The notes under the pieces were generated by a model. It did no database searches and was not told where the DNA came from. It worked only from the letters and a program-made list of their open reading frames with translations. From sequence record NC_031113.1: 44,513 bases of DNA; one strand, given 5' to 3'. This stretch comes from Escherichia phage Gluttony. The position numbers and the translations under genes were made by a program. Below are positions 3,706 through 28,285 of the stretch, in pieces. Positions within the stretch are counted from its first letter, which is position 1. Each line of letters opens with the position of its first letter.

Positions 3706-5126
3706 TTGCGCGCCTTCTTAGCTTTCATGTATTCCATCAAGTCGTCCTGAATATCCCGCTTACTGTCGCGACGCTCGGCGACCAGTTCGTCCAGTGTTCC
3801 GCGCGCCTGGATAATGTAGACGAATACCGGTCGAGGGTGCCCGGCCTGCATCTGGCGAACCGGCCCGATACGCTCAACGATCTGCGAAAAGTGCTCAAAG
3901 TTCCAGGTATCGGAGAAGATTGCCAGGTGATGACCGCCGTCCTGCAAGTTAAGGCCGTGGCCTGCCGATGCCGGGTGTGCAAACATGATGGGGATCTCAC
4001 CCCTGTTCCACGCTTCCATATCCTTATTGCCCTGCTTACCTTTACCCAACGCAACGCCGTGCGGAAATTTCTTCTTAAGTCGTGCCAGGTCATGCTTATA
4101 CTGATACGCAACGAGCAACGGCGCGCCGTTCAACTCCTCTACGATACTCTCCAGCGCGTCCAGCTTCGCGTCGTGAATCTTCACCCACTCGTCGGTCCGT
4201 TCGCCGTCTTCGTCCACCTTATACACGGCCCCGGATGCAAGCTGAAGGCACTTAATTGTCTTCGACGCCGCGTTCGCCGCTTCCACTGTTCCGCTTTCCA
4301 GTTCTGCAAATAGCTCGCTTTCAAACTGGTCATAAATCTTACGCGCTTTCTTCGGCAGGTCCACAACAACCGGCGTATAGATTGGCTTGTCGCACCCGAA
4401 GTATTCCGCCGCGTCAACGGTGAGGGATACATCTGACAGACGTTGTTGTATCTCTTTCTCGGAGTTCTTTAGCGGAGCGTGCTGCATAGTGAAGCTGCTA
4501 GGCTTAACAGGCTTGCTAATGAACCAGCGGTCGGTAAATGCCTTATAGCTACTGCCGAGGCGTTCGCCACCGTCGACAAACCACGTCTGACCCCATAAGT
4601 CTTTTAGCCCGTTTGGCGCTGGTGTGCCGGTAAGGTTAATCCAGCGCTTGACGTGTTTATGTGCAATCGCTGCCAGTGCGCGGGCGCGCTTGCTCCCCTG
4701 CTTGCTACGATAGCCTTTCAGCTTAGTCGATTCATCGGCAACAACGACCGTAAAGGGCCACGCATCGCCGTAATAGTCGACCAGCCACTCAACCACATCA
4801 TAGTTAACACAAACCACGTTAGCGTCGCTCTCCAGCGCTGCAATGCGGTCCTTCTCTGGACCAGTGCCGTCTACTACCAGCAGGGCTGGGAAGCGCCATT
4901 TCTCCTGCTCCGGGGGCCAGGTGCCGGACGCAACGCGCAGCGGGGCCAGCACCAGTACGCGGTCCTCCTGGTTGGACAGGATACCCGTCTGGAACATTTT
5001 ATTCAGCGCCCACATTGTCGCGCCGGTTTTACCCGATCCCATTGTCGCCCATATATTACATCGCTTATGCTTGAGGATGAACGCGGTTATCAACTTCTGA
5101 TATTCGCGGCGTCGGAATCGTGCCAT
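3702..5126 (-). CDS. Superfamily II (SNF2/DEAD-like) DNA helicase
   Basis: Walker A MGSGKTG, DEST box, helicase C motif HPASAGHGLNLQ; start placed at MARF (5126) after a GGCGGA RBS. Confidence 0.8.
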   Translation of the reverse strand: MARFRRREYQKLITAFILKHKRCNIWATMGSGKTGATMWALNKMFQTGILSNQEDRVLVLAPLRVASGTWPPEQEKWRFPALLVVDGTGPEKDRIAALESDANVVCVNYDVVEWLVDYYGDAWPFTVVVADESTKLKGYRSKQGSKRARALAAIAHKHVKRWINLTGTPAPNGLKDLWGQTWFVDGGERLGSSYKAFTDRWFISKPVKPSSFTMQHAPLKNSEKEIQQRLSDVSLTVDAAEYFGCDKPIYTPVVVDLPKKARKIYDQFESELFAELESGTVEAANAASKTIKCLQLASGAVYKVDEDGERTDEWVKIHDAKLDALESIVEELNGAPLLVAYQYKHDLARLKKKFPHGVALGKGKQGNKDMEAWNRGEIPIMFAHPASAGHGLNLQDGGHHLAIFSDTWNFEHFSQIVERIGPVRQMQAGHPRPVFVYIIQARGTLDELVAERRDSKRDIQDDLMEYMKAKKARK

Positions 5127-16434: not shown

Positions 16435-16704
16435 ATGGCACGTAGACGCGCTAAATGGTTATCCTGGTATATTCCCCTGCATAGCATCCGTTTATGGGCG
16501 CAGAATGCGATTGAGGGTGATTCTGTGTTCTGGAGCTATCGGGATGACGTCAAGCCGCTGACGCAGACCAAAATGCTGCACCAGTTCATGAACGAACACG
16601 GACTGCCGGTGAAAACATCATTGCAACCAATCGGCATCCGTATTACATTACGCCGTAAGCCAATCGTTGCGCAGGTTGGCAAACACAAGAGACTGAGCAA
16701 ATGA
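16435..16704 (+). CDS. Hypothetical early protein, 89 aa
   Basis: ORF track. Confidence 0.45.
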   Translation: MARRRAKWLSWYIPLHSIRLWAQNAIEGDSVFWSYRDDVKPLTQTKMLHQFMNEHGLPVKTSLQPIGIRITLRRKPIVAQVGKHKRLSK

Positions 16705-16853
16705 CACCAATGCAAAGAGCGCTAATGGCTGGATTCTCGCAGAAGTTTATTTCAGTAGACGACTGCATAGCTGATTATGAGATGGACGGCATCGCTACGG
16801 TATGCGATGGCGACTATAAGACTGTTGACGAGATCGAGGAGACTGAGCAATGA
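16701..16853 (+). CDS. Small hypothetical protein, 50 aa
   Basis: Hand-translated ORF (MTPMQRALMAGF...) with overlapping ATGA junctions at both ends. Confidence 0.3.
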   Translation: MTPMQRALMAGFSQKFISVDDCIADYEMDGIATVCDGDYKTVDEIEETEQ

Positions 16854-17404
16854 AATTACTATTCCGCAATAAACATAACGGGCTATTCTTCACCCCGATC
16901 GAAGTGCTGCCGAACTTTGTGCGCATGTACCATGAAGCCAGCGACCGCGTATACTGGTACAGGAAAGACACCCTGCATGAGCATTTGCAGGTTGTGCATC
17001 ACGACGTACGAGTAGGTGATGTGCTGCGTTGTGATGGCAATGACTACACCTGGGTCGTGAAGTCAGTCGGGAAGGAATGGATTACTATCGACAGCACTCT
17101 GGTTGCGGGCGCAACAATAAACCCCGCCACCCTGGTGAACTACACCCGCGTAGGCCGGAACTATGCACCTAAGCGCCCTGGCGTCGAAGCGAAAGCGATT
17201 ACCCGTACGGAGCACCCATATACCAAATACGACGAGAACAAGGTGCGCCAGCATATCGACAACGCCCGGAAAGCCATCACCCAGCAATGTGATGCGATGC
17301 GCCTGGCTAATCTGGACGCAGAGCGCTTTGGCATTGGTGTGATCCTGGTCTACCCGGACGGCAGCATGAAGTCTACCGATCCGCGCTCGGTGATTCAGAA
17401 ATGA
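16850..17404 (+). CDS. Hypothetical early protein, 184 aa
   Basis: ORF track; RBS GAGGAG. Confidence 0.5.
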   Translation: MKLLFRNKHNGLFFTPIEVLPNFVRMYHEASDRVYWYRKDTLHEHLQVVHHDVRVGDVLRCDGNDYTWVVKSVGKEWITIDSTLVAGATINPATLVNYTRVGRNYAPKRPGVEAKAITRTEHPYTKYDENKVRQHIDNARKAITQQCDAMRLANLDAERFGIGVILVYPDGSMKSTDPRSVIQK

Positions 17405-17541
17405 GTGCGACGGTCCGTGATATGCTAATGCATAACCGCTTTGAGGTTGGCGGTCGTGTATTCCGTAACTACTTCGTTGCGCGCGCCTGGGCGCGCCACA
17501 TTGGCAAACCAGAGGGGGCAATACGATGCTACACGATTTGA
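17401..17541 (+). CDS. Small hypothetical protein, 46 aa
   Basis: Hand-translated; start overlaps previous stop. Confidence 0.3.
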   Translation: MSATVRDMLMHNRFEVGGRVFRNYFVARAWARHIGKPEGAIRCYTI

Positions 17542-17813
17542 TATATTGGTTTGGATTGGGGTGCGCGACACTCTTTGCCACGGTGCTGGCGCTGTTGGTA
17601 TGGGTGTTCCTGATTTGGCCCGCGGTGGAAGCAGCCAGCATTACCCGCATGACGTTCCAGATATACAAGCGCCGTGGCATCACGGAGCACCCTACCAGGT
17701 TGCGCATGTGGTGGCTATGGTATCGCGATATGATCGGCGGGCGAATGTTCGAGGCCGTCCGATCGGAAGGGTGGGAGTGGAAAGGCGTCGGCAAGTGGTC
17801 CATTTTCGATTAA
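17526..17813 (+). CDS. Membrane protein, 95 aa
   Basis: Hydrophobic N-terminus LGCATLFATVLALLVWVFLIW. Confidence 0.4.
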   Translation: MLHDLIYWFGLGCATLFATVLALLVWVFLIWPAVEAASITRMTFQIYKRRGITEHPTRLRMWWLWYRDMIGGRMFEAVRSEGWEWKGVGKWSIFD

Positions 17814-17830
17814 TTATGCAAGCGTGATAT

Positions 17831-17865
17831 AGTCCCAGTGAGCTAAAACTTACTGGGACTTTTTT
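17831..17865 (+). terminator. Intrinsic terminator directly abutting the holin start codon
   Basis: 9-bp stem AGTCCCAGT/ACTGGGACT, 12-nt loop, then TTTTT and ATG at 17866. Confidence 0.5.
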
Positions 17866-18156
17866 ATGGATAAGCTAAACGAGTGGTTATTCGCCCTTGC
17901 GTGTCTTGCTGGTGGCTTCGTAGGCGCACGCATTCATGGCGAGGCAACGAAAGGGCCGCTAAACTTCGTGTTATATATCGTAGTTGGCTTCCTGTGTGCC
18001 ATCTTTGGTGCGCCAGCTATCGCCGAGTGGGCTGGCTTATCTGGCGAGCGCACTGTCGCCGGTTTGGGCTTCGTAACTGCAATCTTCTGGATGCCAATCG
18101 CCGACCGGGTCAGGGGGACTATTGCGTCGTTCCGACTTCCGGGGGGTGCAAAATGA
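17866..18156 (+). CDS. Holin
   Basis: 96 aa with three hydrophobic segments, directly upstream of the endolysin. Confidence 0.6.
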   Translation: MDKLNEWLFALACLAGGFVGARIHGEATKGPLNFVLYIVVGFLCAIFGAPAIAEWAGLSGERTVAGLGFVTAIFWMPIADRVRGTIASFRLPGGAK

Positions 18157-18398
18157 TTATCTCCGTCCTGTTGTTTGTTATCATCGGGGCTTCGTCCCTG
18201 TTTAACGTGTATGCGCCGTCCGTCCGGGATGGCTTTTTCGGTCGGGTGCTGTATCTGTTAACGGCAATGGTCTGTTTTATCGGATTGTTGCAAACCGGAG
18301 ACGTATCTGATACCACCAGGACCGCGTTAATATGGCTGTTTGCATTGCGCACGCTGCGTAATGCTGTTTTGAATGGGGTAAAACATGCGATTCAGTGA
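18153..18398 (+). CDS. Second small membrane protein of the lysis cassette (holin or antiholin-like)
   Basis: 81 aa, two TM-like segments, overlaps both neighbours. Confidence 0.45.
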   Translation: MIISVLLFVIIGASSLFNVYAPSVRDGFFGRVLYLLTAMVCFIGLLQTGDVSDTTRTALIWLFALRTLRNAVLNGVKHAIQ

Positions 18399-18876
18399 CA
18401 ACGGTCTACGATTTACGGCAGCATGGGAGACGTTCAGTCCAGTGCCGTATTTCGCGACTAAGAAAGAGCAGGCACGCGGCCTGTACACCTGGGGCTATGG
18501 GCATACTGGCACAAACCCGCCGCGGAGCATTACCCGCGCGGAAGCGCTTGAACTACTCAAGCGCGATGTGGCGTATGCCGAAAACTGGGTGAACAAGTAC
18601 GCACACCCTAGTATCAATCAGGCGCAATTCGACGCGCTGGTGGACCTGGTTATCAATGCCGGTCCTGGTCCGATCATGCCGGACGACGTCGCCGGAGACT
18701 TCGACGATGCGATCCGCCTGGGTGACTGGGCAAAGGTCCGTGCTACGCTGCCACAATTCCGCAAGCAAGGCGGGGCAGTGCTCAAGGGGCTTGTCCGTCG
18801 TGCAATCGGCAGGCAGGCACTATTTGATGGTAAGCAGTGGGATGTTGCCGAGAAAATCGGGCGAAACGCCGCATAA
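18385..18876 (+). CDS. Endolysin, phage lysozyme (GH24-like) family
   Basis: YTWGYGHTG and QFDALVDLVINAG...GLVRRAIGRQALF signature. Confidence 0.75.
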   Translation: MRFSDNGLRFTAAWETFSPVPYFATKKEQARGLYTWGYGHTGTNPPRSITRAEALELLKRDVAYAENWVNKYAHPSINQAQFDALVDLVINAGPGPIMPDDVAGDFDDAIRLGDWAKVRATLPQFRKQGGAVLKGLVRRAIGRQALFDGKQWDVAEKIGRNAA

Positions 18877-18892
18877 TACGAGGAGACACAGT

Positions 18893-19054
18893 ATGTTAAA
18901 AAGCATTCTTGATCATAACGCCGACGCGCTCGCCGCGCTGGCTAAAACCGAAGACCCAGGCGCTCGCGCCATTATCGCGGACACTATCAGTCATGCTGGC
19001 GTATTTGACGCGAAGCTGCCGAGTCCGCCACCGCCGGAAGATCCAGAAGTGTAA
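18893..19054 (+). CDS. Small hypothetical protein, 53 aa
   Basis: ORF between the endolysin and a strong terminator. Confidence 0.3.
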   Translation: MLKSILDHNADALAALAKTEDPGARAIIADTISHAGVFDAKLPSPPPPEDPEV

Positions 19055-19060
19055 ACTACC

Positions 19061-19090
19061 AAGCCCGGATAATTCCGGGCTTTTTTATTT
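19061..19090 (+). terminator. Rho-independent terminator after the lysis cassette
   Basis: AAGCCCGGA-TAAT-TCCGGGCTT followed by TTTTTTATTT. Confidence 0.75.
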
Positions 19091-19149
19091 CTTGGCCCAG
19101 TACCGTGGTATATTGCCTCCAGGTCATCTCAAACTGGAAGTAAATTAAT

Positions 19150-20292
19150 ATGCACCCGCAAACTAAAATTACCGATGAGCAATTGATCGCAGAATTGCAA
19201 GCAGGCACTACGTCGAAAGATATTGCGAAGAAATACGGCATTGCCCTTCGAAATGTCTACATGCGCAAAGCCCGCCTGTCGAAGAAAGGTATTGGTCACG
19301 GTAACGATGCCGTAATTCGTAAGCGCGTTGCTGATGGCTTCGGTGTTAAACGCGTATCCGCCCTGGTGCGCGGAAATGGCGAAGAGGTCATGTCGTGGGT
19401 TATCACTGAGCAAGACAAGGAGCGCCAGCTTGAAGCAATGCGAGCCGTTGTCGAGGGTATGAACAGCGAAATCACACCGGCAGCGCCAGTAAACGCCCCG
19501 CCAGTACCGATCCAGGCGCTAGACTTGCTCAACCTGTACACCGTGTCCGACTTCCACCTGGGTATGCTGGCATGGGGCGAGGAGACTGGCGAAGATTGGG
19601 ATATGGCGATCGCCGAAGACCTGTTCTACCGCTGGTTTGTCGAAGCCTTCGCCCGCGCACCGGACGCAGGCACTGCCGTGATCAATATCCTCGGCGATAT
19701 GGCGCACTTTGATAGCCTTGATGCCGTCACACCGGCAAGCGGTCACGTATTGGACGCCGACACCCGCTACCAGAAACTGGTACGCTACATGATTCGCATG
19801 GTGCGCAACGTGGTAGACCTGGCGCTGCAAAAACACCACAAAGTCAAACTTCTAATCGTCCAGGGGAATCATGACGAGTCTGGCATGATTTGGCTGGCTG
19901 AAATGTTCAATACACTGTACGAGAACGAGCCACGCGTCGAGGTGGACACGTCCCCGGACGTGTACAAAATGGTGCAACACGGCAAGACCACGCTGTTCTT
20001 CCACCACGGGCACAAAGCGCGCTTCGATGCTATCGAGACCGTCATGATTTCTAAATTCAGACAGGCTTTCGGATCCAGTGAGTACAGCTACGCACACGTA
20101 GGCCACTTGCACCACCAGAAGATTGTAGAATCCCGCAACATGATTGTTGAACAACACCGGACCCTCGCAGCGAAAGACGCATATGCCAGCCGCGGCGGTT
20201 GGATGTCCGGTCGTAGTGCCAACGTCATCACCTACAGCGCCAATTACGGCGAAGTGGCGCGCTTAACCATTAGCCCGGAAATGTTGAAGTAA
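19150..20292 (+). CDS. N-terminal HTH fused to a calcineurin-like metallophosphoesterase domain
   Basis: HTH TTSKDIAKKYGIALRNV; phosphoesterase motifs DFH, GDMAHFD, GNHDE, HHGH, GHLHH. Confidence 0.6.
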   Translation: MHPQTKITDEQLIAELQAGTTSKDIAKKYGIALRNVYMRKARLSKKGIGHGNDAVIRKRVADGFGVKRVSALVRGNGEEVMSWVITEQDKERQLEAMRAVVEGMNSEITPAAPVNAPPVPIQALDLLNLYTVSDFHLGMLAWGEETGEDWDMAIAEDLFYRWFVEAFARAPDAGTAVINILGDMAHFDSLDAVTPASGHVLDADTRYQKLVRYMIRMVRNVVDLALQKHHKVKLLIVQGNHDESGMIWLAEMFNTLYENEPRVEVDTSPDVYKMVQHGKTTLFFHHGHKARFDAIETVMISKFRQAFGSSEYSYAHVGHLHHQKIVESRNMIVEQHRTLAAKDAYASRGGWMSGRSANVITYSANYGEVARLTISPEMLK

Positions 20293-20421
20293 CGGCAACC
20301 AGTAATCCTCCCAGCCTGCCGATTTGGTGGGCTTTTTTGTGCCTGTTATAATCCCCTCAGATGGCAGGGCCGTCTCTTATGTTGCCGATGGTCGGCGCAT
20401 ATGCACAAAAGGGCTTATATC

Positions 20422-20973
20422 ATGGCAGAAATTAAAGTTAAAGGTCGTCGCGCTAAACTGGACGGACGAGTCGCAGTAACCCCGCGCCGTAAACCAGGCG
20501 AGCAAACAGAGCATACCAATCTCGGACCTGAGATCGAATATGGCAAGCGTCGTAAAGGCGGCAAATGCGGACGCCCTACTGACTACAGATCCGTTTACTG
20601 CGACCAGCTTCGCCGCTATTTTGCCGACGCCGACGCCTGGCAGGTCAACTACTCCGATAAAGGCGCTGCGCAAGTAATTCCCCGCAACAAAATGCCAACC
20701 TTCGGTCGATTTGCCGCGGAAATCGGCGTTGGCGTCGCTTGCCTGTATCGCTGGGCGCGTGCACATGAGGAGTTCGCCGAGGCTATGGCGGACGCTATGG
20801 AGCTACAGAAAACTTTCCTGATGGAAGCTGGCGGCGTTACCATCGCGGCGGGCTTCGCCACGTTCCTGCTTAAAGCCAACCACGGCGTCCGCGATGATGT
20901 TCCACTGGATGACGACGAAGATGATAACGGCGACGTCGTTGTCGAACCTACCGGCAAAGGCCAGGGTGAGTAA
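20422..20973 (+). CDS. Terminase small subunit (Terminase_2-like)
   Basis: GGKCGRPTDY and YCDQ motif; acidic C-terminus; directly upstream of the large subunit; start at MAEIK (track ORF begins at 20401). Confidence 0.7.
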   Translation: MAEIKVKGRRAKLDGRVAVTPRRKPGEQTEHTNLGPEIEYGKRRKGGKCGRPTDYRSVYCDQLRRYFADADAWQVNYSDKGAAQVIPRNKMPTFGRFAAEIGVGVACLYRWARAHEEFAEAMADAMELQKTFLMEAGGVTIAAGFATFLLKANHGVRDDVPLDDDEDDNGDVVVEPTGKGQGE

Positions 20974-22358
20974 TGCGTAATTATGCGGCAGAACACCGCG
21001 CCCTGGAACGCGCGATCGCAAAGCGCAACCGACCGCCGCGCCCTACGCGTGTTGCGCAGGCCGTCCGCCTGTATCAGCCTGATTGCCTTCCCCACCAGGT
21101 GGAACTACTGCGCGATACAAAGACCAAAATCCTCGGCCTGTGTTCCGGCTTCGGTGGCGGTAAGTCATGGGTTGCGGCGCGCAAGGTCATCCAGCTTCTG
21201 ACACTGAACCCTGGTCATGACGGCATCGTTACAGAACCGACAATCCCCCTCCTGGTTAAAATCATGTACCCGGAATTGGAAAAGGCGTTTGACGAGGCGG
21301 GCTTCCGGTGGAAGTTCAATAAGCAGGACAAGATCTATAACGTGCTTGTGAAAGGCAAATGGACCCGCGTTATCTGTGAATCAATGGAGAACTATACCCG
21401 CCTGATCGGGGTCAACGCCGCGTGGATTGTTGCCGATGAATTCGACACCACGAAGCAGGACGTTGCGCTGGCGGCGTATCACAAATTGCTCGGCCGTCTG
21501 CGTGCGGGTCTGGTCCGCCAGTTTGTCATCGTGTCCACCCCGGAAGGCTACCGGGCAATGTACCAGATTTTCGAGGTGGAGAAAGACAACCAGAAACGCT
21601 TGATCCGGGCGAAGACCACGGACAACCACCATTTACCGGCAGACTTTATCGACACGCTCCGTAGTCAGTACCCAGCTAACCTGATCGACGCGTACCTGAA
21701 CGGCCTGTTTGTTAACCTTACGTCGGGCGCGGTATACAAGATGTTTAACCGTGAGGAGAACGCCAGCACCGAAGAAGTGCAACCGGACGACACGCTGATT
21801 ATCGGTATGGACTTTAACGTCACGAAAATGGCGGCGGTCGTGTACGTCAGACGGCAGCGCATCACCGAAAACAAGGAGTTCCGCGACGAGATTCACGCAG
21901 TGGATGAATTTGTGGACCTGTTTGATACCCCGGCTATGATTGAGGCGATCGAGGAGCGATACCCCGATCATTGTGCTGCCGGTCGTGTTGTTGTTTACCC
22001 GGATAGCAGCGGCAAGTCTCGCAAGACTGTCAACGCATCGTCGTCCGATATCGCGCAACTGGAAGACGCGGGCTTCGAGGTGGAGTATGACAGCGTTAAC
22101 CCTCCCGTGAAAGACCGATTGATCGCGATGAATACGATGATGTGCAACTCGAAGGGCGTGCGCCAGTATTTTGTCAACCTGGATAAATGCCCTACACTAG
22201 CGAAATGTCTGGAACAGCAGGTCTACGACCTGAAGAAAGGCGAGCCGGATAAAACCGCCGGTGTGGACCACATGAACGATGCCGCGGGCTATCCAATTGC
22301 GCACCTGTTCCCAGTGATTCGTCCGATCGCCGTTGTTCCAACTGTAGACTTCTACTAA
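20973..22358 (+). CDS. Terminase large subunit
   Basis: Walker A-like GFGGGKS; size and position before the portal gene. Confidence 0.8.
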   Translation: MRNYAAEHRALERAIAKRNRPPRPTRVAQAVRLYQPDCLPHQVELLRDTKTKILGLCSGFGGGKSWVAARKVIQLLTLNPGHDGIVTEPTIPLLVKIMYPELEKAFDEAGFRWKFNKQDKIYNVLVKGKWTRVICESMENYTRLIGVNAAWIVADEFDTTKQDVALAAYHKLLGRLRAGLVRQFVIVSTPEGYRAMYQIFEVEKDNQKRLIRAKTTDNHHLPADFIDTLRSQYPANLIDAYLNGLFVNLTSGAVYKMFNREENASTEEVQPDDTLIIGMDFNVTKMAAVVYVRRQRITENKEFRDEIHAVDEFVDLFDTPAMIEAIEERYPDHCAAGRVVVYPDSSGKSRKTVNASSSDIAQLEDAGFEVEYDSVNPPVKDRLIAMNTMMCNSKGVRQYFVNLDKCPTLAKCLEQQVYDLKKGEPDKTAGVDHMNDAAGYPIAHLFPVIRPIAVVPTVDFY

Positions 22359-22368
22359 GGAAACGACC

Positions 22369-23889
22369 ATGACCGTTAACGTTGACAACCAGCACCCTCT
22401 CTATGCGCGCATCGCGCCAGAGTGGAAAATGATTCGTGACTGTGTAGCAGGGGAGCGCGCCGTGAAGGCGTGCGGCCCCTTGTACCTGCCTCATCCCGCC
22501 AGTGGCGACAATACTGACCCAAAAGCACGGGCGCGATATAAGGCGTACAAGCAACGCGCTGTATTCCTGAACGCCACCGCCCGCACACTTAACGCGCTGT
22601 TAGGCGTCGCCTTTGCAAAACCTGTAAGTCTGGACCTTTCTGGGGCGATGGCTGACCTGATTGACGACGTAGACGGCAGCGGTATGCCATTGCCGCAACT
22701 TCTGCGCGGTGCTATGTCGGAAGTTCTGCAATCGGGCCGCGCGGGCTTTATGGTGGACTACGACCGCCAGGCTAACTTTGATGAACTGGGTAACGTAGTT
22801 CCGCAGACAGCCGCCGAGATGGCGTCACACCGCCCGCTTATCCGCCTGTACACGGCAGAACAGATCATCAACTGGCGGCAGACCCACGGCGTCGATACGC
22901 TAATTGTGCTGAAGGAAACGGACGAAATCAGCACCGAAGACCCGGACGACTTCGCAAACCACGAAGTAACAATCTGGACCGAGCTTCGCATGATTGACGG
23001 CAAGGCACACGCCCGCCGCTGGTTTTACAACGCGGACACGTCCGAAGTGCAGATGGACTTGCCGCGTGGATTTACCCGCACCGATCTGGTGCCGTTGGTG
23101 GATGCTTCCGGTAATGCGCTTACGCAACTACCGTTTTGCTGGTGCGGTGCGGTGGACAACAACGCAACGCCTGACGCCGCTCCGCTGGCGGATATCGCAT
23201 CCATCAACATTAAGCACTACAACGCCGAAGCGGACGTCGCCGAGATTGCGCACATCGTGGGCCAGCCTACCCTCGTTGCGACGGGCTTGACCCAATCATG
23301 GGCGGACAAGAACCTGAAGGGCGGCATTGCCCTCGGTGCGACTAAGGGCGTTATCCTGGGCCAGAACATGGACGCTAAACTGATCCAGGCGGAGGAGCGC
23401 AACTTGTCTGTTGCACTGTGTGAGCGTCGCGAATTGCAAATGGCTAAACTTGGCGCGGCCCTGGTCGAGAAGGGGACAGCACCTAAGACGGCAACGGAAG
23501 CGGCCTACGATGCGCAGACTGATAACAGTATCCTGTCACTGATCGCCGGTAACGTCGAGAAGGCTTTCAACCGTGCGCTGCAAATCGTCCAGCTATTCAC
23601 GGGCGACACCGCCGACCAGCGTGTGACGCTGAATAAGTTCTACACCGAAATCACGGTTGATGCGCAGCTTATGACCGCGATGATGTCGGGTGTGCAGACG
23701 GGTACGGTCCGCCTGGCTGACTTCATCAAGTGGATGATGGCGCAGGGTGTCATCGACGACTCGCAAACCGTCGAGCAGGTTGAAGACGAATTGCGGAATC
23801 AGAATCCACTGCCCCAAATGTCCTCCGATGCGGTAGAATCTACCGAAGAAGACCCGGACAAGGTAGCGGACAATGTCGAAGACAATTAA
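22369..23889 (+). CDS. Portal protein
   Basis: 506 aa immediately after the terminase large subunit; acidic C-terminus. Confidence 0.75.
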   Translation: MTVNVDNQHPLYARIAPEWKMIRDCVAGERAVKACGPLYLPHPASGDNTDPKARARYKAYKQRAVFLNATARTLNALLGVAFAKPVSLDLSGAMADLIDDVDGSGMPLPQLLRGAMSEVLQSGRAGFMVDYDRQANFDELGNVVPQTAAEMASHRPLIRLYTAEQIINWRQTHGVDTLIVLKETDEISTEDPDDFANHEVTIWTELRMIDGKAHARRWFYNADTSEVQMDLPRGFTRTDLVPLVDASGNALTQLPFCWCGAVDNNATPDAAPLADIASINIKHYNAEADVAEIAHIVGQPTLVATGLTQSWADKNLKGGIALGATKGVILGQNMDAKLIQAEERNLSVALCERRELQMAKLGAALVEKGTAPKTATEAAYDAQTDNSILSLIAGNVEKAFNRALQIVQLFTGDTADQRVTLNKFYTEITVDAQLMTAMMSGVQTGTVRLADFIKWMMAQGVIDDSQTVEQVEDELRNQNPLPQMSSDAVESTEEDPDKVADNVEDN

Positions 23890-24976
23890 TCAACATTTGG
23901 CGGATCGAATGATTCGCCGTCACATCTTCACCCAGCGCCTGAGCAATGATCAGGCGCGGAGGGTGCTGGCTATGTGGGAGAAGTTCCGGCCCACTTTACT
24001 TGGTAAGCTGACCGAGTTACTTGATGGCAAAAAGTCCATGAGCAACAAGGCACTTACCACACTGTTAACGCAACTCGACAAGACCGTCAAAACGGAACTG
24101 CGCGCCGAGTTTAAAGTGCTGGCGGATAGTCTTCAGGAGTTTGCCGACACCGAGGCCGATTACCTCGCCGACACATTAACGGCAGCGATCCAGCCGGTGG
24201 TCGCCGTACCTGCGGTCGAGGTGGTGGGTGTAGTAACAGGCGCGCAGGTCGCAGCGACTGCGATGAAAAACCCGTTCCAGGGTAACACCATGATGCAATG
24301 GCCGGATTCACTTTCAGAGTGGACAAGGACGCAGATCGGCAATCAGGTGCGCGCCGGATTCATCCAGGGCAAGCCGACTATGGAAATTATCGCGGACGTG
24401 AGGCGCGCGCTCGGCGGTCGTAGTGCGCAAGCAATCTCAAGCGTTGTTAAGTCCGCTGTCAACCACTATGCGGCGACCGCCCGCGAATTAATGGTGAAAG
24501 CTAATGACGATATTCTCGAAGGTCGCCAATGGTTGGCCACATTGGACACTCATACTTCCCCTATGTGCCAGCTACGCGATCGCCTGTTTTATCCTGTTGA
24601 CGTCACTCCCGACACCAAAGGAAAACGCGGCGGGAAAGTGGTGGCGGGATCACAATATGGCGCTGGTCCGGGCAAGCTGCATTATTGCTGCCGTTCGACG
24701 GAGACGTGGAAAGTTAAGGGCATGGAAGACTGGCCCAGTGGTAAGCGTCCGGCACTGAAGGCTGACGCAGGCAGATTGCTGAGTGAGCAGGTAGACGCGC
24801 AGACTGATTTCTTCTCATGGGTGCAGCGCCAGCCGCGCCATATTCTGGAGGAGTTATATGGAGTGCAACGCGCCGACCAGATTATGCGCGGCGTGAAAGT
24901 GCCGAAGATGTTTACCGATTCTGGCGAACTGATGACTATTGCACAGCTTAAAAACCGGGGGTTATGGCGTGATTAA
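23873..24976 (+). CDS. Head morphogenesis / minor head protein (Mu F or SPP1 gp7-like)
   Basis: Position after the portal; 367 aa. Confidence 0.55.
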   Translation: MSKTINQHLADRMIRRHIFTQRLSNDQARRVLAMWEKFRPTLLGKLTELLDGKKSMSNKALTTLLTQLDKTVKTELRAEFKVLADSLQEFADTEADYLADTLTAAIQPVVAVPAVEVVGVVTGAQVAATAMKNPFQGNTMMQWPDSLSEWTRTQIGNQVRAGFIQGKPTMEIIADVRRALGGRSAQAISSVVKSAVNHYAATARELMVKANDDILEGRQWLATLDTHTSPMCQLRDRLFYPVDVTPDTKGKRGGKVVAGSQYGAGPGKLHYCCRSTETWKVKGMEDWPSGKRPALKADAGRLLSEQVDAQTDFFSWVQRQPRHILEELYGVQRADQIMRGVKVPKMFTDSGELMTIAQLKNRGLWRD

Positions 24977-25277
24977 ATATGCAGCGATCGGACTGGTTAT
25001 CGGTCTGGTGGTAGGATTCTGGCAGGGTGATTCCTACCGAGCTGCCGTTGTGGCGAGAGCATCGCAAGAAGCGCAAGCGAAAGCCCAACGGCAGCAAACT
25101 AAGGTTGTCGAGGGGGCTGTGCAGGCAGAACAGGCCCGCGATGTGGAATACCGGACTATCACGAAAGAGGTTGTGAAATATGTTACGCGTCCTAACCGTC
25201 CTGATTGCAGTTTTGATGCTGAGCGCGTGCGGATCAAGCAAAGCGCCATTGATGCCGCTAACCGAGTCGGTCTATAG
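24939..25277 (+). CDS. i-spanin (Rz-like); start may be GTG near 24966
   Basis: N-terminal TM segment IKYAAIGLVIGLVVGFW followed by a coiled-coil region. Confidence 0.65.
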   Translation: MHSLKTGGYGVIKYAAIGLVIGLVVGFWQGDSYRAAVVARASQEAQAKAQRQQTKVVEGAVQAEQARDVEYRTITKEVVKYVTRPNRPDCSFDAERVRIKQSAIDAANRVGL

Positions 25278-25410
25278 ACCGCCTTGCACCTTTGAGAATG
25301 CCTCGGCAGATCCAGACGAAGACTTGCTGGTTGATGTTAAGAATATGGAGTGTGGTGCGAAGCTGCGGGCGCAAGTGCTGGAGTTGCAGAAAATAATTCG
25401 GGGGCCGTGA
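25180..25410 (+). CDS. o-spanin (Rz1-like lipoprotein) in the +1 frame overlapping the i-spanin
   Basis: Signal peptide with lipobox LSAC, proline-rich mature region, conserved Cys. Confidence 0.7.
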   Translation: MLRVLTVLIAVLMLSACGSSKAPLMPLTESVYRPPCTFENASADPDEDLLVDVKNMECGAKLRAQVLELQKIIRGP

Positions 25411-25422
25411 TGGCCCCCTTTT
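25391..25422. terminator. Bidirectional intrinsic terminator between the o-spanin and the minus-strand moron
   Basis: GGGGGCC-GTGAT-GGCCCCC with T-runs on both sides. Confidence 0.7.
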
Positions 25423-25424
25423 CG

Positions 25425-26189
25425 TTAGCGCGGAATACCGCAAATCTCGTTTAGTGTTTTCACGTCCAGCGCCACCGCCGTGGACTTCGGCTTGTCCGGG
25501 TAAGGAATGAACTGTTCAACTTCAGGCCACGCCTTGATCAGCTTCTTATCTGTATTGTGCATATCCAGCACGCCGGTAACAGTTAGTTTGAACGCGTCAT
25601 ACTTAGCACGCAACTCACGGCGGGCCTTGTCGTTACGGTCCAGGCGCTTGCAGAAATCATGACCCGCCGGGTAGTCTATACGACCGCGTGGCTTATATAT
25701 CGGCAGCGCTTTCCCGTCGTCGTCGACTTCGCACACTGACGCTAACAAAATTTCCTCATACCCTGGCACAATATCGCCGAGATCGGGGGATAGTTTATTC
25801 ATGTATTTATACTCCCAGTATCCTCGATGTACTCGGAATCGGTATCCGTCTCCGCTCAATGACACGGTACGGACGTTTCCGCCTGCGTTGATTTCGAAAG
25901 TGGCGTCGTAAACGCTGCCTATACCATATGGGTTGTCGTCGTCATGTCTATACGTCGCCTTGTTGGTGTATACGCTTACTCCGTACATCTGCGACGGGTC
26001 ATCGCCGATTGCTTTAATGCGCGAGAGTAGCTCGGCGAAAGTGCGAATGCCTTCCGGCATACAGTCCAGCGTAATGGCGTACGCCAGATTTCGAGAGTCC
26101 ATCATGATTGATTTGGCTTCGGTCGCGATTTCGTGGTCGCGCAGGATGTTAGCCAGAATCTGGTTTTTAATGTCTTTCGTCAGTCTCAT
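25425..26189 (-). CDS. Moron: 254-aa protein of unknown function on the opposite strand inside the head gene block
   Basis: Start at MRLTKDIKNQ with GAGGA RBS; own promoter and terminator; no recognisable motifs. Confidence 0.6.
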   Translation of the reverse strand: MRLTKDIKNQILANILRDHEIATEAKSIMMDSRNLAYAITLDCMPEGIRTFAELLSRIKAIGDDPSQMYGVSVYTNKATYRHDDDNPYGIGSVYDATFEINAGGNVRTVSLSGDGYRFRVHRGYWEYKYMNKLSPDLGDIVPGYEEILLASVCEVDDDGKALPIYKPRGRIDYPAGHDFCKRLDRNDKARRELRAKYDAFKLTVTGVLDMHNTDKKLIKAWPEVEQFIPYPDKPKSTAVALDVKTLNEICGIPR

Positions 26190-26218
26190 TTGTGTGTCCT
26201 CGTTGTTGGTGTGCAACC

Positions 26219-26248
26219 AATATAGTGCAACCAATACGAGGATTGCAA
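26219..26248 (-). promoter_or_regulatory. Promoter for the moron (TTGCAA-18-TATATT) with two GTGCAACCAATA copies
   Basis: Leader and RBS near-identical to the 16063 promoter cassette (TATATTGGTTGCACACCAACAA-GAGGA). Confidence 0.5.
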
Positions 26249-26255
26249 GCGAATT

Positions 26256-26283
26256 TTGCGATTATTTTTATCGCTGATAATAT
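26256..26283 (+). promoter_or_regulatory. Candidate promoter for the scaffold and capsid genes (TTGCGA-16-TAATAT)
   Basis: Hexamer spacing read directly. Confidence 0.35.
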
Positions 26284-26338
26284 TAGAAGCGTGAAGTCGA
26301 GCGGGTGGCCTGCTCTGCCACAATCCCAGGGGGATAGC

Positions 26339-27043
26339 ATGAAACTTACTAAAGCAGAATATGACGCGTTGCCGGAAGGTATGAAGGCGCTTTTTGTTGC
26401 CGATGGTGACGGGTATAAGTCAACGTTCATGACCGCAGAAGAAGTACAGGCGGAAATCAAGGGTCTGAAAGACAACAACGCGAAGCTGGTGAGCGAGAAG
26501 AAAGCAGAAGCTGAACGCCGCGCCGAAGCTGAGCGCCTTGCGAAAGAGAAAGAGGAAGCCGCCGCGCGCAAAAATGGCGACCTCGAAGCGATCGACAAGT
26601 CCTGGAAGGATAAGTTTGCGAAACACGAAGCAGACACATCGGGAAAAATCGAAGCCTACCGCAAGCAGATCCACGATCTAACCATCGGCAGCGCTGCCAA
26701 AGACCTGGCATCGAAGCTATTCGGTAAGAATGCGGGCATCATGCAACGCCACGTAATGGACCGCCTGACGCTGGAAGACGGCGAAGACGGCAGCTTGAAA
26801 GTGCGTGTCTTGCAGGATGGCAAACCGTCCGCGCTGACTATGGAAGAGCTTGAAAAAGAGTTCCGTAATAACGCCGATTTTGCATCCGTCCTGGCTGGCA
26901 CGCCAGCCGGTGGCGCGCCTAGCAAACCGACGCAGGTTGTCGAAGATGTGAAGTCGAAAATCACTATGGGCCACAGCTTCGGTATCACTGACCTTACGAA
27001 ACAGGCAGGTGAAATCATCGCTAAGATGGGCGACGACGAGTAA
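26339..27043 (+). CDS. Scaffolding protein
   Basis: Coiled-coil-rich 234-aa protein directly upstream of the capsid gene; RBS AGGGGGA. Confidence 0.6.
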   Translation: MKLTKAEYDALPEGMKALFVADGDGYKSTFMTAEEVQAEIKGLKDNNAKLVSEKKAEAERRAEAERLAKEKEEAAARKNGDLEAIDKSWKDKFAKHEADTSGKIEAYRKQIHDLTIGSAAKDLASKLFGKNAGIMQRHVMDRLTLEDGEDGSLKVRVLQDGKPSALTMEELEKEFRNNADFASVLAGTPAGGAPSKPTQVVEDVKSKITMGHSFGITDLTKQAGEIIAKMGDDE

Positions 27044-27047
27044 GCAG

Positions 27048-27073
27048 ATTGCCCGCGAAAGCGGGCAATTTTG
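27048..27073 (+). terminator. Intrinsic terminator or attenuator after the scaffold gene
   Basis: TTGCCCGC-GAAA-GCGGGCAA followed by TTTT. Confidence 0.6.
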
Positions 27074-27140
27074 CGAGCGCGTAAATCTAAGGTAACATTA
27101 ACGTCACTGGGCGAATGCTCACAACTCAAAGGATTTCGAT

Positions 27141-28241
27141 ATGTCTTTAACAGTGTTCCAGCGTAAACTCGTTACCGCGGTTACGCAAATGATCCCCGAC
27201 AACCTGAACGTTTTCAACGCCGCCGCCAATGGCGCTGTTGTTCTCGGTACTGGTGAAGTGCTGAAGGATGTTGTTGAGAAAATGTCCGTAGGCTTGATCG
27301 CCAACCTTGTTACCGACCGTAACGCCTACGCCCCTGTCGGCACTCCGGCAACCGCTAAAGTGCTGGCGCGTATGCTGACCAACTCCGTTAACCTTTCCGC
27401 GAAAGTGGGTCCGGTAGCAATCACTAAGGCCATGATGGCTAAAATCGAAACCAACGTTAACAGCGTTGCGGCTGAGATTGCGGCGCAGGCTACTCAAGCG
27501 ATTTTGCTGCATTACCTAAAAGCTGGTATCGGTGCGGGTAAAGCGGCGATCGAAAGCAACGCAGCGGCAAAATACACCCAACCGGCGCGCGTTGACGGCG
27601 TTGGCGGTCGTACCTTCCCGACCCTGGCAGACTTCCCGCTGGCGGCTTCTAAGTTCGGCGATCAGGCGTCTTTGATTAAGTCCTGGTTTATGGACGGCGT
27701 TACCTGGGCAAACTTCATTGCGTACCAGGCACTCCCTTCCGCTGAACAGGTATTCGCAATTGGCGATCTCCAGGTAATGGGTGATGGCCTGGGCCGTCGC
27801 TTCATTATCTCCGATGCCGCTGCCGATGCTATGGGCGCTGGTAACATGCTGGGTCTGGTCCCTGGCGCGGTTGCAGTTACGACCAACGGCCTCGACATGC
27901 TGGCGCAGGAAAAAGGCGGCAACGAGAACATTGAGCGCTGGTGGCAGGGTGAGTTCGACTTCAACGTGGCTGTTAAAGGCTACCGTCTGAAGGCGTCCGC
28001 TCGTACCCCGATCGAAGGTGTACGCTCGTTCAAACTGGACGATATCACCACTTCCGCTAACTGGGAACTGGATCAGGGCCAGGTAGACAACGCACCGGCA
28101 ACCGTGCAGGATGTTGGCGCTGTGGGTGATGGCGATACTAAAGGCCGTCGTAAGACCCAGGCCGCACAGGCAGTGCCTACCCGCCACATCAAGGAAACCG
28201 CTGGCGTACTGGTTACGCTGACGGCGACTACCGCGTCTTAA
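27141..28241 (+). CDS. Major capsid protein
   Basis: 366 aa between the scaffold gene and a strong terminator. Confidence 0.75.
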   Translation: MSLTVFQRKLVTAVTQMIPDNLNVFNAAANGAVVLGTGEVLKDVVEKMSVGLIANLVTDRNAYAPVGTPATAKVLARMLTNSVNLSAKVGPVAITKAMMAKIETNVNSVAAEIAAQATQAILLHYLKAGIGAGKAAIESNAAAKYTQPARVDGVGGRTFPTLADFPLAASKFGDQASLIKSWFMDGVTWANFIAYQALPSAEQVFAIGDLQVMGDGLGRRFIISDAAADAMGAGNMLGLVPGAVAVTTNGLDMLAQEKGGNENIERWWQGEFDFNVAVKGYRLKASARTPIEGVRSFKLDDITTSANWELDQGQVDNAPATVQDVGAVGDGDTKGRRKTQAAQAVPTRHIKETAGVLVTLTATTAS

Positions 28242-28257
28242 CGGGCGCACATCCCAA

Positions 28258-28285
28258 ATGGGCGGGCTTATGCCCGCCTTTTTTA
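28258..28285 (+). terminator. Strong intrinsic terminator after the capsid gene
   Basis: GGCGGGC-TTAT-GCCCGCC followed by TTTTTTA. Confidence 0.8.

Follow-up and report, generated by a model that had tools for sequence, protein, structure and literature searches.

The genome of Escherichia phage Gluttony raises the question of why two small overlapping genes, predicted to encode an inner-membrane and an outer-membrane spanin (i-spanin and o-spanin), lie far from the holin and endolysin genes, and whether this separation matters for lysis. We analysed the whole genome (NC_031113.1; 44,513 nt, the window), which is a complete Dhillonvirus genome of an HK578-like E. coli siphovirus. The pair was found 6.1 kb 3' of the holin-holin-endolysin cassette (17866-18876) and immediately behind the head-morphogenesis gene (Table 1). 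The endolysin stop and the i-spanin start are separated by 6,092 nt, filled by six genes: a 53-aa ORF, an exonuclease-like gene, terS, terL, the portal gene and the head-morphogenesis gene. The terS, terL and portal genes (20401..23889) are closely packed between cassette and spanins, and the head-morphogenesis gene runs 8 nt into the i-spanin gene (GTGATTAA). A canonical contiguous holin-endolysin-spanin cassette was not found, as the spanin genes adjoin neither the endolysin nor the holin. Past the o-spanin stop lies an Nmad5 gene that is convergent to the o-spanin gene.

A first-pass annotation had described an overlapping i-/o-spanin pair, apart from a holin and endolysin at 17866..18876 and after a head-morphogenesis gene. 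All of this was borne out: the pair by PHROG Rz-like matches, a transmembrane segment, a lipobox and the 98-nt overlap; the holins and endolysin by phrog_2359, phrog_2508 and PF00959; and the placement by the distance from the endolysin stop and by the stop/start overlap with the phrog_241 gene.

Table 1. Features of the lysis cassette, the packaging/head genes and the spanin pair in the Gluttony genome.
Feature	Position	Strand	Remarks
Holin	17866-18156	+	phrog_2359, 4e-31
Second holin	18153-18398	+	phrog_2508, 3e-27
Endolysin, soluble GH24	18385-18876	+	PF00959, 1.7e-20; no transmembrane segment
Terminator-like hairpin closing the lysis cassette	19061-19082	+	kept in 5 aligning Dhillonvirus sequences, Gluttony included
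Terminator-like hairpin	20313-20333	+	before the promoter-like site
Extended -10-like motif TGTTATAAT	20344-20352	+	49 nt 5' of the terS start
terS	20401-20973	+	phrog_3064
terL	20973-22358	+	phrog_10250/phrog_2
Portal gene	22369-23889	+	phrog_145
Head-morphogenesis gene (Mu-F/SPP1 gp7-like)	23873..24976	+	phrog_241, 1e-116
i-spanin	24969..25277	+	102 aa; phrog_2536 Rz-like spanin, 7e-34
Dual-coding overlap	25180..25277	+	98 nt, different frames; 'overlapped' spanin architecture, i-spanin first
o-spanin	25180..25410	+	ATG start, 76 aa; phrog_5672 1e-25, phrog_1267 5e-12
Bidirectional terminator-like GC-rich hairpin, T-runs on both strands	25400..25418	both	at the o-spanin stop, shared with Nmad5

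The maximal i-spanin ORF (24939..25277) opens at an upstream TTG, which had been taken as the start. GTG 24969 is the best start: it is annotated in relatives (in the close relative MZ501095 the i-spanin is given as 4548..4856, with an equivalent start), 13/13 Dhillonvirus copies have a GTG there, and it is preceded by GGGGG at a distance of 7 nt, whereas TTG 24939 has no such motif. The earlier start is therefore probably 30 nt too far upstream. A hydropathy scan of the i-spanin gave a single N-terminal transmembrane segment at about residues 5-19 (mean Kyte-Doolittle 1.76-1.93) and no other segment, and an N-terminal hydrophobic segment was common to all seven aligned homologues. The protein has a single conserved cysteine, Cys80, which is invariant in its alignment (A1). 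An AF2 single-sequence model of low confidence (pLDDT 60) predicted a helix at 5-72, a loop at 73-83 and a helix at 84-99.

The o-spanin ATG at 25180 has AGAGG 9 nt 5' of it. Its product begins with the signal peptide MLRVLTVLIAVLMLSA followed by CG..., with the lipobox LSAC, Cys17 and Gly at +2, leaving a mature protein of 60 aa with Cys36 and Cys58. Because the residue at +2 is Gly, not Asp, outer-membrane sorting is expected. The three cysteines are invariant in the o-spanin alignment (A2); among relatives, the lipobox was present in 85/85 and three cysteines in 83/85. A transmembrane domain and a lipobox, proposed earlier as a check on the pair, were thus both present, as called by a hydropathy and regular-expression script.

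We asked whether one or both ORFs might be chance frames or annotation artefacts. They are short (102 and 76 aa), overlap in different frames and have no Pfam or NCBIfam match: Pfam gave none at E<=0.01, and relaxing the limit to E<=5 brought up no Rz-type family; NCBIfam gave none above threshold, P2_Rz1 scoring 14.5 bits against a cut-off of 27. Against a chance origin, the PHROG E-values were 7e-34 and 1e-25, and searches of the two proteins found relatives in 675 and 644 phage records. Neither ORF was broken in any of the 13/13 Dhillonvirus copies (83-96% DNA identity), and each single-coding part varied in excess at third positions: 35/70 against 14/71 and 6/70 for the i-spanin, and 26/44 against 8/43 and 4/43 for the o-spanin. 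The dual-coding overlap varied at 0.18 of sites, compared with 0.26 and 0.29 in the single-coding parts. At 31-36% (i-spanin) and 20-43% (o-spanin) identity to the homologues of K1G, SETP13, pYD38-A, AH01 and VLCpiS11a, the alignments retained the motifs ITxEVVKYV..P.R..C.FD and D.DEDL..DV.N.EC, and i-spanin C80 and o-spanin C17/C36/C58 were invariant across Dhillonvirus, Kagunavirus, Jerseyvirus, Roufvirus, Pantoea and Klebsiella phages. Both ORFs are far beyond chance by their PHROG matches, their relatives and the codon-position variation in each frame; the probability of chance ORFs is close to nil, and this explanation is effectively refuted already. The pair would work in an Rz/Rz1-like manner, yet by Pfam and NCBIfam it falls outside the lambda Rz/Rz1 and P2 LysB/LysC sequence families.

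The Gluttony genome was screened for another spanin, a unimolecular spanin or a decayed copy near the endolysin, both with a strict lipoprotein filter and with a lenient tblastn search using 146 spanin sequences. This returned noise only (E >= 0.03); no other lipoprotein or spanin candidate was found, the o-spanin being the sole credible lipoprotein ORF. As a candidate spanin or disruptin, the 53-aa ORF behind the endolysin (18893-19054, phrog_11068) was rejected: it is acidic and has neither a transmembrane segment nor a lipobox.

The transcription signals around the pair were then compared. The -10-like motif upstream of terS was invariant in 8/8 aligned Dhillonvirus sequences (Gluttony and seven others), and the hairpin before it was kept in the same eight with paired stem substitutions, even where the upstream gene differs. 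The hairpin at the o-spanin stop was kept in 9/9 aligned sequences of the genus (Gluttony and eight others), with varying outermost stem positions and a shorter stem in some of the nine; its fold had an energy of -17.3 kcal/mol (z -1.9). The + strand from 20375 to 25400 contained no terminator-like site, and an Rfam scan of 16500-27500 gave no match. Because a sigma-70 scan was not enriched (9 sites versus 9.4 in shuffled sequence), the promoter was assigned by the conservation of TGnTATAAT-like sites only. The motif at 20344-20352 is the putative start of a unit that ends with the spanins, and these would close a terS-terL-portal-head-morphogenesis-spanin unit reaching from the promoter-like site to the terminator. 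Co-transcription with the late packaging and head genes, in line with the first-pass proposal of transcription with late structural genes, is plausible given the start/stop overlap, the lack of a + strand terminator within 20375-25400 and the conserved terminator at the o-spanin stop. Probably, the spanins are expressed along with the packaging and head proteins and not from the holin-endolysin transcript.

IMG/VR yielded 531 relatives. To see how the layout is distributed, we compared the 80 closest IMG/VR loci: 19 were split, 58 had the endolysin immediately upstream of the spanins, and 3 were cut off. The layout was split in every Dhillonvirus locus checked and in every Guernseyvirinae locus examined, the full layout being read in K1G (Kagunavirus) and SETP13 (Jerseyvirus), and close relatives such as MZ501095 already annotate the two genes at the same position. 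In a neighbour-joining tree (174 columns, midpoint-rooted, without bootstrap support), all split-type spanins fell in one clade. The claim that a split lysis module is less common therefore stands across the wider spanin family but not within Dhillonvirus and Guernseyvirinae. The 6-kb separation is an inherited layout of these two groups and no rearrangement particular to Gluttony.

Contiguous relatives connect the pair to lysis. Temperate phage-like contigs of Klebsiella/E. coli (e.g. L034, PHB10-like) and Vibrio phage pYD38-A encode homologous i-/o-spanins (38-49% identity), in pYD38-A also directly after the endolysin. The endolysins adjoining contiguous spanins were GH24, probable SAR (membrane-anchored) GH24 and apparent GH19, the latter two types being assigned from sequence motifs. 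Since the same family adjoins endolysins of at least three types, the pair is functionally tied to lysis. The temperate contigs have a related terL (50% to K1G) and portal and head-morphogenesis proteins with 32-35% identity to those of Gluttony; their order is holin-endolysin-i/o-spanin, then terS-terL-portal-head morphogenesis-capsid, whereas the Gluttony spanins follow the head-morphogenesis gene. In pYD38-A, the whole lysis cassette sits between the head-morphogenesis and capsid genes. Its head-morphogenesis protein showed no significant BLASTP similarity to that of Gluttony, so this position may be convergent.

We consider it very likely that the pair is a Jersey-family two-component spanin in a late packaging/head unit, whose split layout was inherited and has little functional consequence. 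The two genes would be the last of a 5-kb unit of terS, terL, portal, head morphogenesis, i-spanin and o-spanin. The i-spanin would be anchored in the inner membrane by its N-terminal helix, a mostly helical domain reaching into the periplasm, while the o-spanin would be cut between LSA and C, receive its lipid on Cys17 and go to the outer membrane. Analogy with lambda Rz/Rz1 predicts that the two proteins interact through their C-terminal parts, and the conserved periplasmic cysteines are probably linked by intermolecular disulfide bonds. Such bonds have been shown for the spanins of lambda and T4. The complexes would thread through the cell-wall meshwork until holin triggering lets the soluble endolysin break down the wall; fusion of inner and outer membrane by the complexes would then set the progeny free. 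The results establish the reality of the two genes, their topology signals, their family, the conserved gene order and the contiguous order in relatives; the transcription unit, the disulfides, complex formation and membrane fusion are inferred. Gluttony would possess a lysis system complete in its three steps. According to the published spanin model, complexes accumulate in the intact peptidoglycan meshwork and become active only after endolysin removes the wall (Kongari et al., 2018; PMC6139136). Because they wait for the endolysin, lysis timing would be set by holin triggering and not by the position of the spanin genes, and with their activity controlled after translation, by wall degradation, the separation should be of little functional consequence.

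The first-pass annotation had read the split as changing when the outer-membrane disruption step is expressed, which would give the spanins another temporal programme that retimes or regulates this step. The conserved hairpins at 19061-19082 and 20313-20333 and the promoter-like site at 20344-20352 do intervene between the cassette and the spanin unit, so separate transcripts are plausible. However, in the model of PMC6139136, earlier or later synthesis would leave the lysis time unchanged provided that the spanins are there in time; cassette and spanin unit share one strand of the late region; and T4 too keeps its spanins apart from t and e. In Kagunavirus RNA-seq, the lysozyme, a Mu-F-like gene and the capsid gene fell in one temporal class (PMC12645636), a coarse comparison with three temporal classes for 42/57 genes and unnamed spanin genes, linked to Gluttony by the split layout read in K1G of that genus and not in the RNA-seq phage itself. 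The altered timing is unsupported, since in the published model spanins wait for endolysin (PMC6139136), and we regard such a programme as unlikely. Another reading is that the pair does not serve lysis, or not only, being a membrane protein plus a lipoprotein carried as cargo, e.g. a superinfection-exclusion or receptor-blocking lipoprotein. The slot between head-morphogenesis and scaffold genes does vary and houses accessory genes (Nmad5, a Hoc-like gene, endonuclease VII and small reverse-strand genes), the pair is closed by a terminator of its own, and the family function was assigned bioinformatically. But homologues stand directly after the endolysin in 58 loci and adjoin endolysins of at least three types; both the paired topology and the conserved cysteines fit the description of spanins; the genome has no other spanin candidate; and a siphovirus that infects a Gram-negative host and makes a soluble endolysin should require a spanin. 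A cargo role is thus very improbable.

As the junction between head-morphogenesis and scaffold genes has the entire cassette in pYD38-A and only the spanins in Dhillonvirus and Guernseyvirinae, it might be a recurrent landing site for lysis genes, in which case the 8-nt overlap with the head-morphogenesis gene in Dhillonvirus could be adaptive and couple spanin dosage to head assembly. We think this quite unlikely; if it were true, holin firing before assembly (e.g. under abortive-infection stress) would leave the cell without spanins and its outer membrane unopened. Under the preferred reading of an inherited split of little consequence, a spanin family contiguous with the endolysin in related temperate phages was relocated behind the head-morphogenesis gene in one clade. 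This relocation would show that the spanin module can be freely uncoupled from holin and endolysin, which fits gating by wall degradation and not by transcription. The significance is small beyond correct annotation, and the comparative result is of modest value. Pipelines that seek spanins only beside the endolysin miss the pair, and many of the listed phage records say 'hypothetical protein'.

The pair, its family and its position are already known (Kongari et al., 2018; MZ501095 annotation). The Jersey family of overlapped two-component spanins was defined by Kongari et al. (2018; PMC6139136), who list HK578, EK99P-1, JL1, SSL-2009a and SO-1 among the Jersey i- and o-spanin families and describe a short subfamily (EP23...SO-1, with HK578, EK99P-1, JL1 and SSL-2009a among its members) and two constant o-spanin cysteines; the secondary structure given for this subfamily agrees with our low-confidence i-spanin model (pLDDT 60). 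The Gluttony pair shares phrog_2536 with phrog_5672/1267 and the overlapped architecture with the family, and, with the short subfamily, two periplasmic o-spanin cysteines and a short i-spanin, for which two helices and a linker are weakly predicted in Gluttony. Dhillonvirus, Kagunavirus and Jerseyvirus all have the spanins behind the head-morphogenesis gene, as Gluttony does. The Gluttony genes overlap by 98 nt, those of Jersey and K1G by 155 nt and those of FSL SP-031 and AH01 by 8 nt; the Gluttony i-spanin has 102 aa, that of other Dhillonviruses 109 aa and that of Guernseyvirinae about 128 aa. Judged by sequence, the pair is an already known Jersey-family member with nothing of substance to set it apart. 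Family assignment in the literature is bioinformatic, and we found no report of a functional test of any Jersey-family spanin; a literature text search likewise yielded no useful general statement on scattered lysis genes.

As predicted for the Gluttony pair, lambda Rz/Rz1 consist of an inner-membrane type II protein and an outer-membrane lipoprotein with periplasmic cysteines; the lambda i-spanin is helical, which is weakly predicted for that of Gluttony, and membrane fusion gated by cell-wall removal is presumed to be common to both. Rz1 is fully embedded in Rz, straight after S and R, whereas the Gluttony genes are overlapped and outside the cassette; the lambda proteins have 153/60 aa, compared with 102/76 aa. 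Rz1 has one cysteine in a proline-rich coil; in the Gluttony o-spanin there are two periplasmic cysteines, and a helix region is predicted at the C-terminus. Precedents for spanins unlinked from holin and/or endolysin are provided by T7 and T4. The T7 spanins gp18.5/18.7 are encoded between the genes for the terminase subunits, a long way from lysozyme 3.5. In T4, PseT.3/PseT.2 lie away from t and e (PMC6139136). Both phages differ from Gluttony in spanin family, architecture (separated in T4, embedded in T7, overlapped in Gluttony) and phage morphotype.

On sequence evidence, both spanin genes are real. The i-spanin matched the PHROG Rz-like spanin family phrog_2536 (7e-34) and the o-spanin matched phrog_5672 (1e-25); tblastn found their relatives in 675 and 644 phage records, respectively, mostly Salmonella Jerseyvirus, Escherichia Dhillonvirus or Kagunavirus. 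Both frames were unbroken in 13 Dhillonvirus copies (83-96% DNA identity), and variable sites in the single-coding parts of these copies were concentrated at the third codon position (35/70 vs 14/71 and 6/70 for the i-spanin; 26/44 vs 8/43 and 4/43 for the o-spanin). The overlap was more constrained, with 0.18 of its sites variable vs 0.26 and 0.29 in the single-coding parts.

The first-pass annotation had described the two ORFs as they stand, with the i-spanin frame open from TTG 24939; its start codon was revised, and the gene likely starts at GTG 24969, giving a product of 102 aa. GGGGG lies 7 nt 5' of this GTG, and TTG 24939 has no such motif. The start codon is GTG in 13/13 Dhillonvirus copies, and records of close relatives give the equivalent start (MZ501095, 4548..4856). 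The spanin genes share 98 nt, read in different frames. By hydropathy scan, the i-spanin has a single N-terminal hydrophobic segment, and a single-sequence AlphaFold model with a pLDDT of only 60 gave a helix (5-72), a loop (73-83) and a helix (84-99). The lipoprotein signal peptide of the o-spanin ends in the lipobox LSAC, with Cys17 and a Gly at +2. Dhillonvirus i-spanins show two C-terminal forms, one of 102 aa (...AANRVGL; the window and loci L001, L007 and L008) and one of 109 aa (...AANGVGTATAVQVR); the difference (window 25255-25277; loci L009-L018) maps where the start of the mature o-spanin is also encoded.

Cys80 of the i-spanin and Cys17 (the predicted lipid-modified residue), Cys36 and Cys58 of the o-spanin were invariant across seven genomes (Dhillonvirus, Kagunavirus, Jerseyvirus, Roufvirus and unclassified Guernseyvirinae). 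Among 85 pairs, the lipobox was found in 85/85 o-spanins and exactly three mature-part cysteines in 83/85. Kongari et al. (2018; PMC6139136) assign HK578, EK99P-1, JL1, SSL-2009a, SO-1, EP23, Jersey, SETP3, K1G and others to the Jersey family, whose two-component spanin genes overlap; the i-spanins from EP23 to SO-1 form a subfamily of shorter proteins, and two cysteines of the o-spanin are constant. The pair has every sequence-testable feature of a two-component spanin and of this family (PHROG 2536 and 5672), and its function is predicted. Profile searches did not place it in the lambda Rz/Rz1 or P2 LysB/LysC families, and we found no experimental test of any Jersey-family spanin in the literature.

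Lysis genes and terminator-like hairpins in the window
Feature	Position	Strand	Remarks
Holin	17866-18156		confirmed
Second holin	18153-18398		confirmed
Soluble GH24 endolysin	18385-18876		confirmed
o-spanin gene	25180..25410		ATG start; 76 aa; AGAGG 9 nt upstream of ATG
Terminator-like hairpin	17831-17860	+	immediately before holin ATG
Terminator-like hairpin	19061-19082	+	after lysis cassette
Terminator-like hairpin	20313-20333	+	before terS
Terminator-like hairpin	25400-25418	+	at o-spanin stop; bidirectional, common to convergent Nmad5 gene
Terminator-like hairpin	28260-28279	+	after capsid gene

The spanin pair lies outside any contiguous lysis cassette. Its proposed separation from the holin-endolysin genes was borne out, with 6,092 nt between the endolysin stop and the i-spanin start, as was its place after the head-morphogenesis gene; the stop of that gene and the start of the i-spanin overlap (GTGATTAA). 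Within the gap lie a 53-aa ORF, a 380-aa exonuclease-like gene, terS, terL, portal and the head-morphogenesis gene, and no spanin relic remains beside the window's endolysin. The 53-aa ORF (18893-19054; phrog_11068, 3e-38), directly 3' of the endolysin, is conserved and acidic with a proline-rich C-terminus; it was rejected as a spanin, having no membrane signal. The 380-aa metallophosphoesterase/DNA-repair-exonuclease-like gene (19150-20292; phrog_704, 3e-161), between the lysis cassette and terS, has terminator-like hairpins on both flanks; its K1G counterpart is on the opposite strand within the tail region, and Dhillonvirus locus L010 lacks it.

Window 23800-25500 was 100% identical to Escherichia phage Lust and 93-96% identical to many further Dhillonvirus (HK578-like) genomes, and phage Pride matched the first 25 kb at 98%. 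These matches indicate that the 44.5-kb window is the complete genome of a virulent E. coli siphovirus from a well-sampled genus. K1G (Kagunavirus) and SETP13 (Jerseyvirus) share its split order: holin-holin-endolysin ... terS-terL-portal-head morphogenesis-(Hoc)-spanins-scaffold-capsid. The spanins also sit between head-morphogenesis and scaffold genes in Pantoea phage AH01 and Klebsiella phage VLCpiS11a, where the stretch examined carries no annotated endolysin.

We mapped reference proteins onto the best 80 IMG/VR loci with i-spanin relatives (10-kb flanks). The order was split in 12 Dhillonvirus and 7 Guernseyvirinae-like loci, 3 loci were cut off at the i-spanin, and in 58 an endolysin gene lay directly upstream of it. 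The endolysins of these contiguous loci were GH24 or, by sequence motifs, probable SAR (membrane-anchored) GH24 and, in some, apparent GH19 types. In many contiguous loci, terL (50% identity with K1G), portal and a head-morphogenesis gene follow, the last with a protein that shares 32-35% identity with the window's (E 1e-45 to 1e-56); one locus, L034, is similar to temperate phages of Klebsiella and E. coli, for example PHB10. In a midpoint-rooted neighbour-joining tree of concatenated i- and o-spanins (174 columns, no bootstrap support), all split-type pairs formed one clade apart from every contiguous pair. Together with the 58 contiguous relatives and the lack of a relic by the endolysin, this argues that the split is clade-wide and probably a single-origin rearrangement relative to the lambda-like contiguous layout.

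In four loci (L019, L021, L044 and L075), the endolysin about 1.3 kb before the i-spanin is of the apparent GH19 type (sequence motifs), not GH24; three of these loci have two predicted holin genes. The presence of this endolysin beside Jersey-family spanins suggests that the spanin module combines freely with different endolysin types. The junction after the head-morphogenesis gene may be a favoured slot for lysis genes. Vibrio phage pYD38-A has a complete endolysin-holin-spanin cassette between its head-morphogenesis and capsid genes; this may be convergence, because its head-morphogenesis protein has no detectable similarity to the window's. A convergent Nmad5 gene (nucleotide-modification-associated domain 5, PF18757, 5e-54; 25425-26234, - strand) lies between the spanins and the scaffold gene; present in 8/12 and absent from 4/12 IMG/VR Dhillonvirus loci, it is variable cargo in the head-morphogenesis/scaffold slot.

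The genes from terS through the o-spanin overlap or are separated by ≤10 nt, and no + strand terminator-like site was found between 20375 and 25400. All four hairpins flanking the lysis and spanin genes are kept in the Dhillonviruses aligned with the window (8 relatives at the holin leader and at the o-spanin terminator, 7 at the terS region, 4 at the post-lysis terminator). The terS-upstream terminator and TGTTATAAT motif are kept even where the upstream gene differs, and the -10-like motif is invariant (window plus 7). This is most simply read as one 5-kb unit, terS-terL-portal-head morphogenesis-i-spanin-o-spanin, separate from the holin-endolysin unit. Promoter function is putative, since sites in a generic sigma-70 scan were not enriched over shuffled sequence. 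The 20313-20400 element, which also has a second small hairpin (20359-20375) and varies at only a few bases in 8/8 Dhillonvirus sequences, may act as a late promoter with its leader or belong to a packaging recognition site. At 17822-17868, an extended -10-like TGATATAGT runs directly into a 12-bp hairpin (-19.8 kcal/mol, z -5.3), then six U and the holin AUG; a free Shine-Dalgarno sequence is not obvious. Save for loop bases, this element is unchanged in 9/9 aligned Dhillonvirus sequences. It could be a terminator that shields the lysis cassette from transcription entering from upstream, with the cassette's own promoter overlapping it, or alternatively a translational control element for the holin.

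The first-pass annotation presumed the spanins to be transcribed with late structural genes and held that the split alters the timing of expression of the outer-membrane disruption step. The spanin pair, its separate position and a plausible distinct late unit stand; the altered timing is not supported. By homology and topology, the pair would act as a two-component spanin. In the published model, spanin complexes build up within the peptidoglycan meshwork, and are freed for lateral diffusion, conformational change and fusion of the inner and outer membranes only after endolysin removes the wall (PMC6139136). The time of outer-membrane disruption would thus be set by holin triggering, and the spanins need only be present by then. 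In coarse Kagunavirus RNA-seq, lysozyme, a Mu-F-like gene and the capsid gene share a temporal class, in a phage whose gene order may differ (PMC12645636).

Records of BASEL phages carry 'i-spanin' and 'o-spanin' labels at exactly the window's position, after the minor capsid/head-morphogenesis gene; counting across the genome ends, holin-holin-endolysin lies about 6 kb upstream in them. Dhillonvirus and Jerseyvirus isolate papers give spanin gene numbers far from those of holin and endolysin, without remark. With the family list of Kongari et al., these place the feature already in the public record. Both spanins are labelled 'hypothetical protein' in many Dhillonvirus records; the SETP13 o-spanin (L003 6480-6743) is annotated from an internal ATG (6600), losing its signal peptide, and that of pYD38-A (L004 9212-9457; lipobox ISGC), overlapping an annotated Rz-like gene, is unannotated. 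The split layout is the norm for this phage group and so of low significance. T7 is a further precedent for unlinked spanins. T4 is likewise one (PMC6139136).
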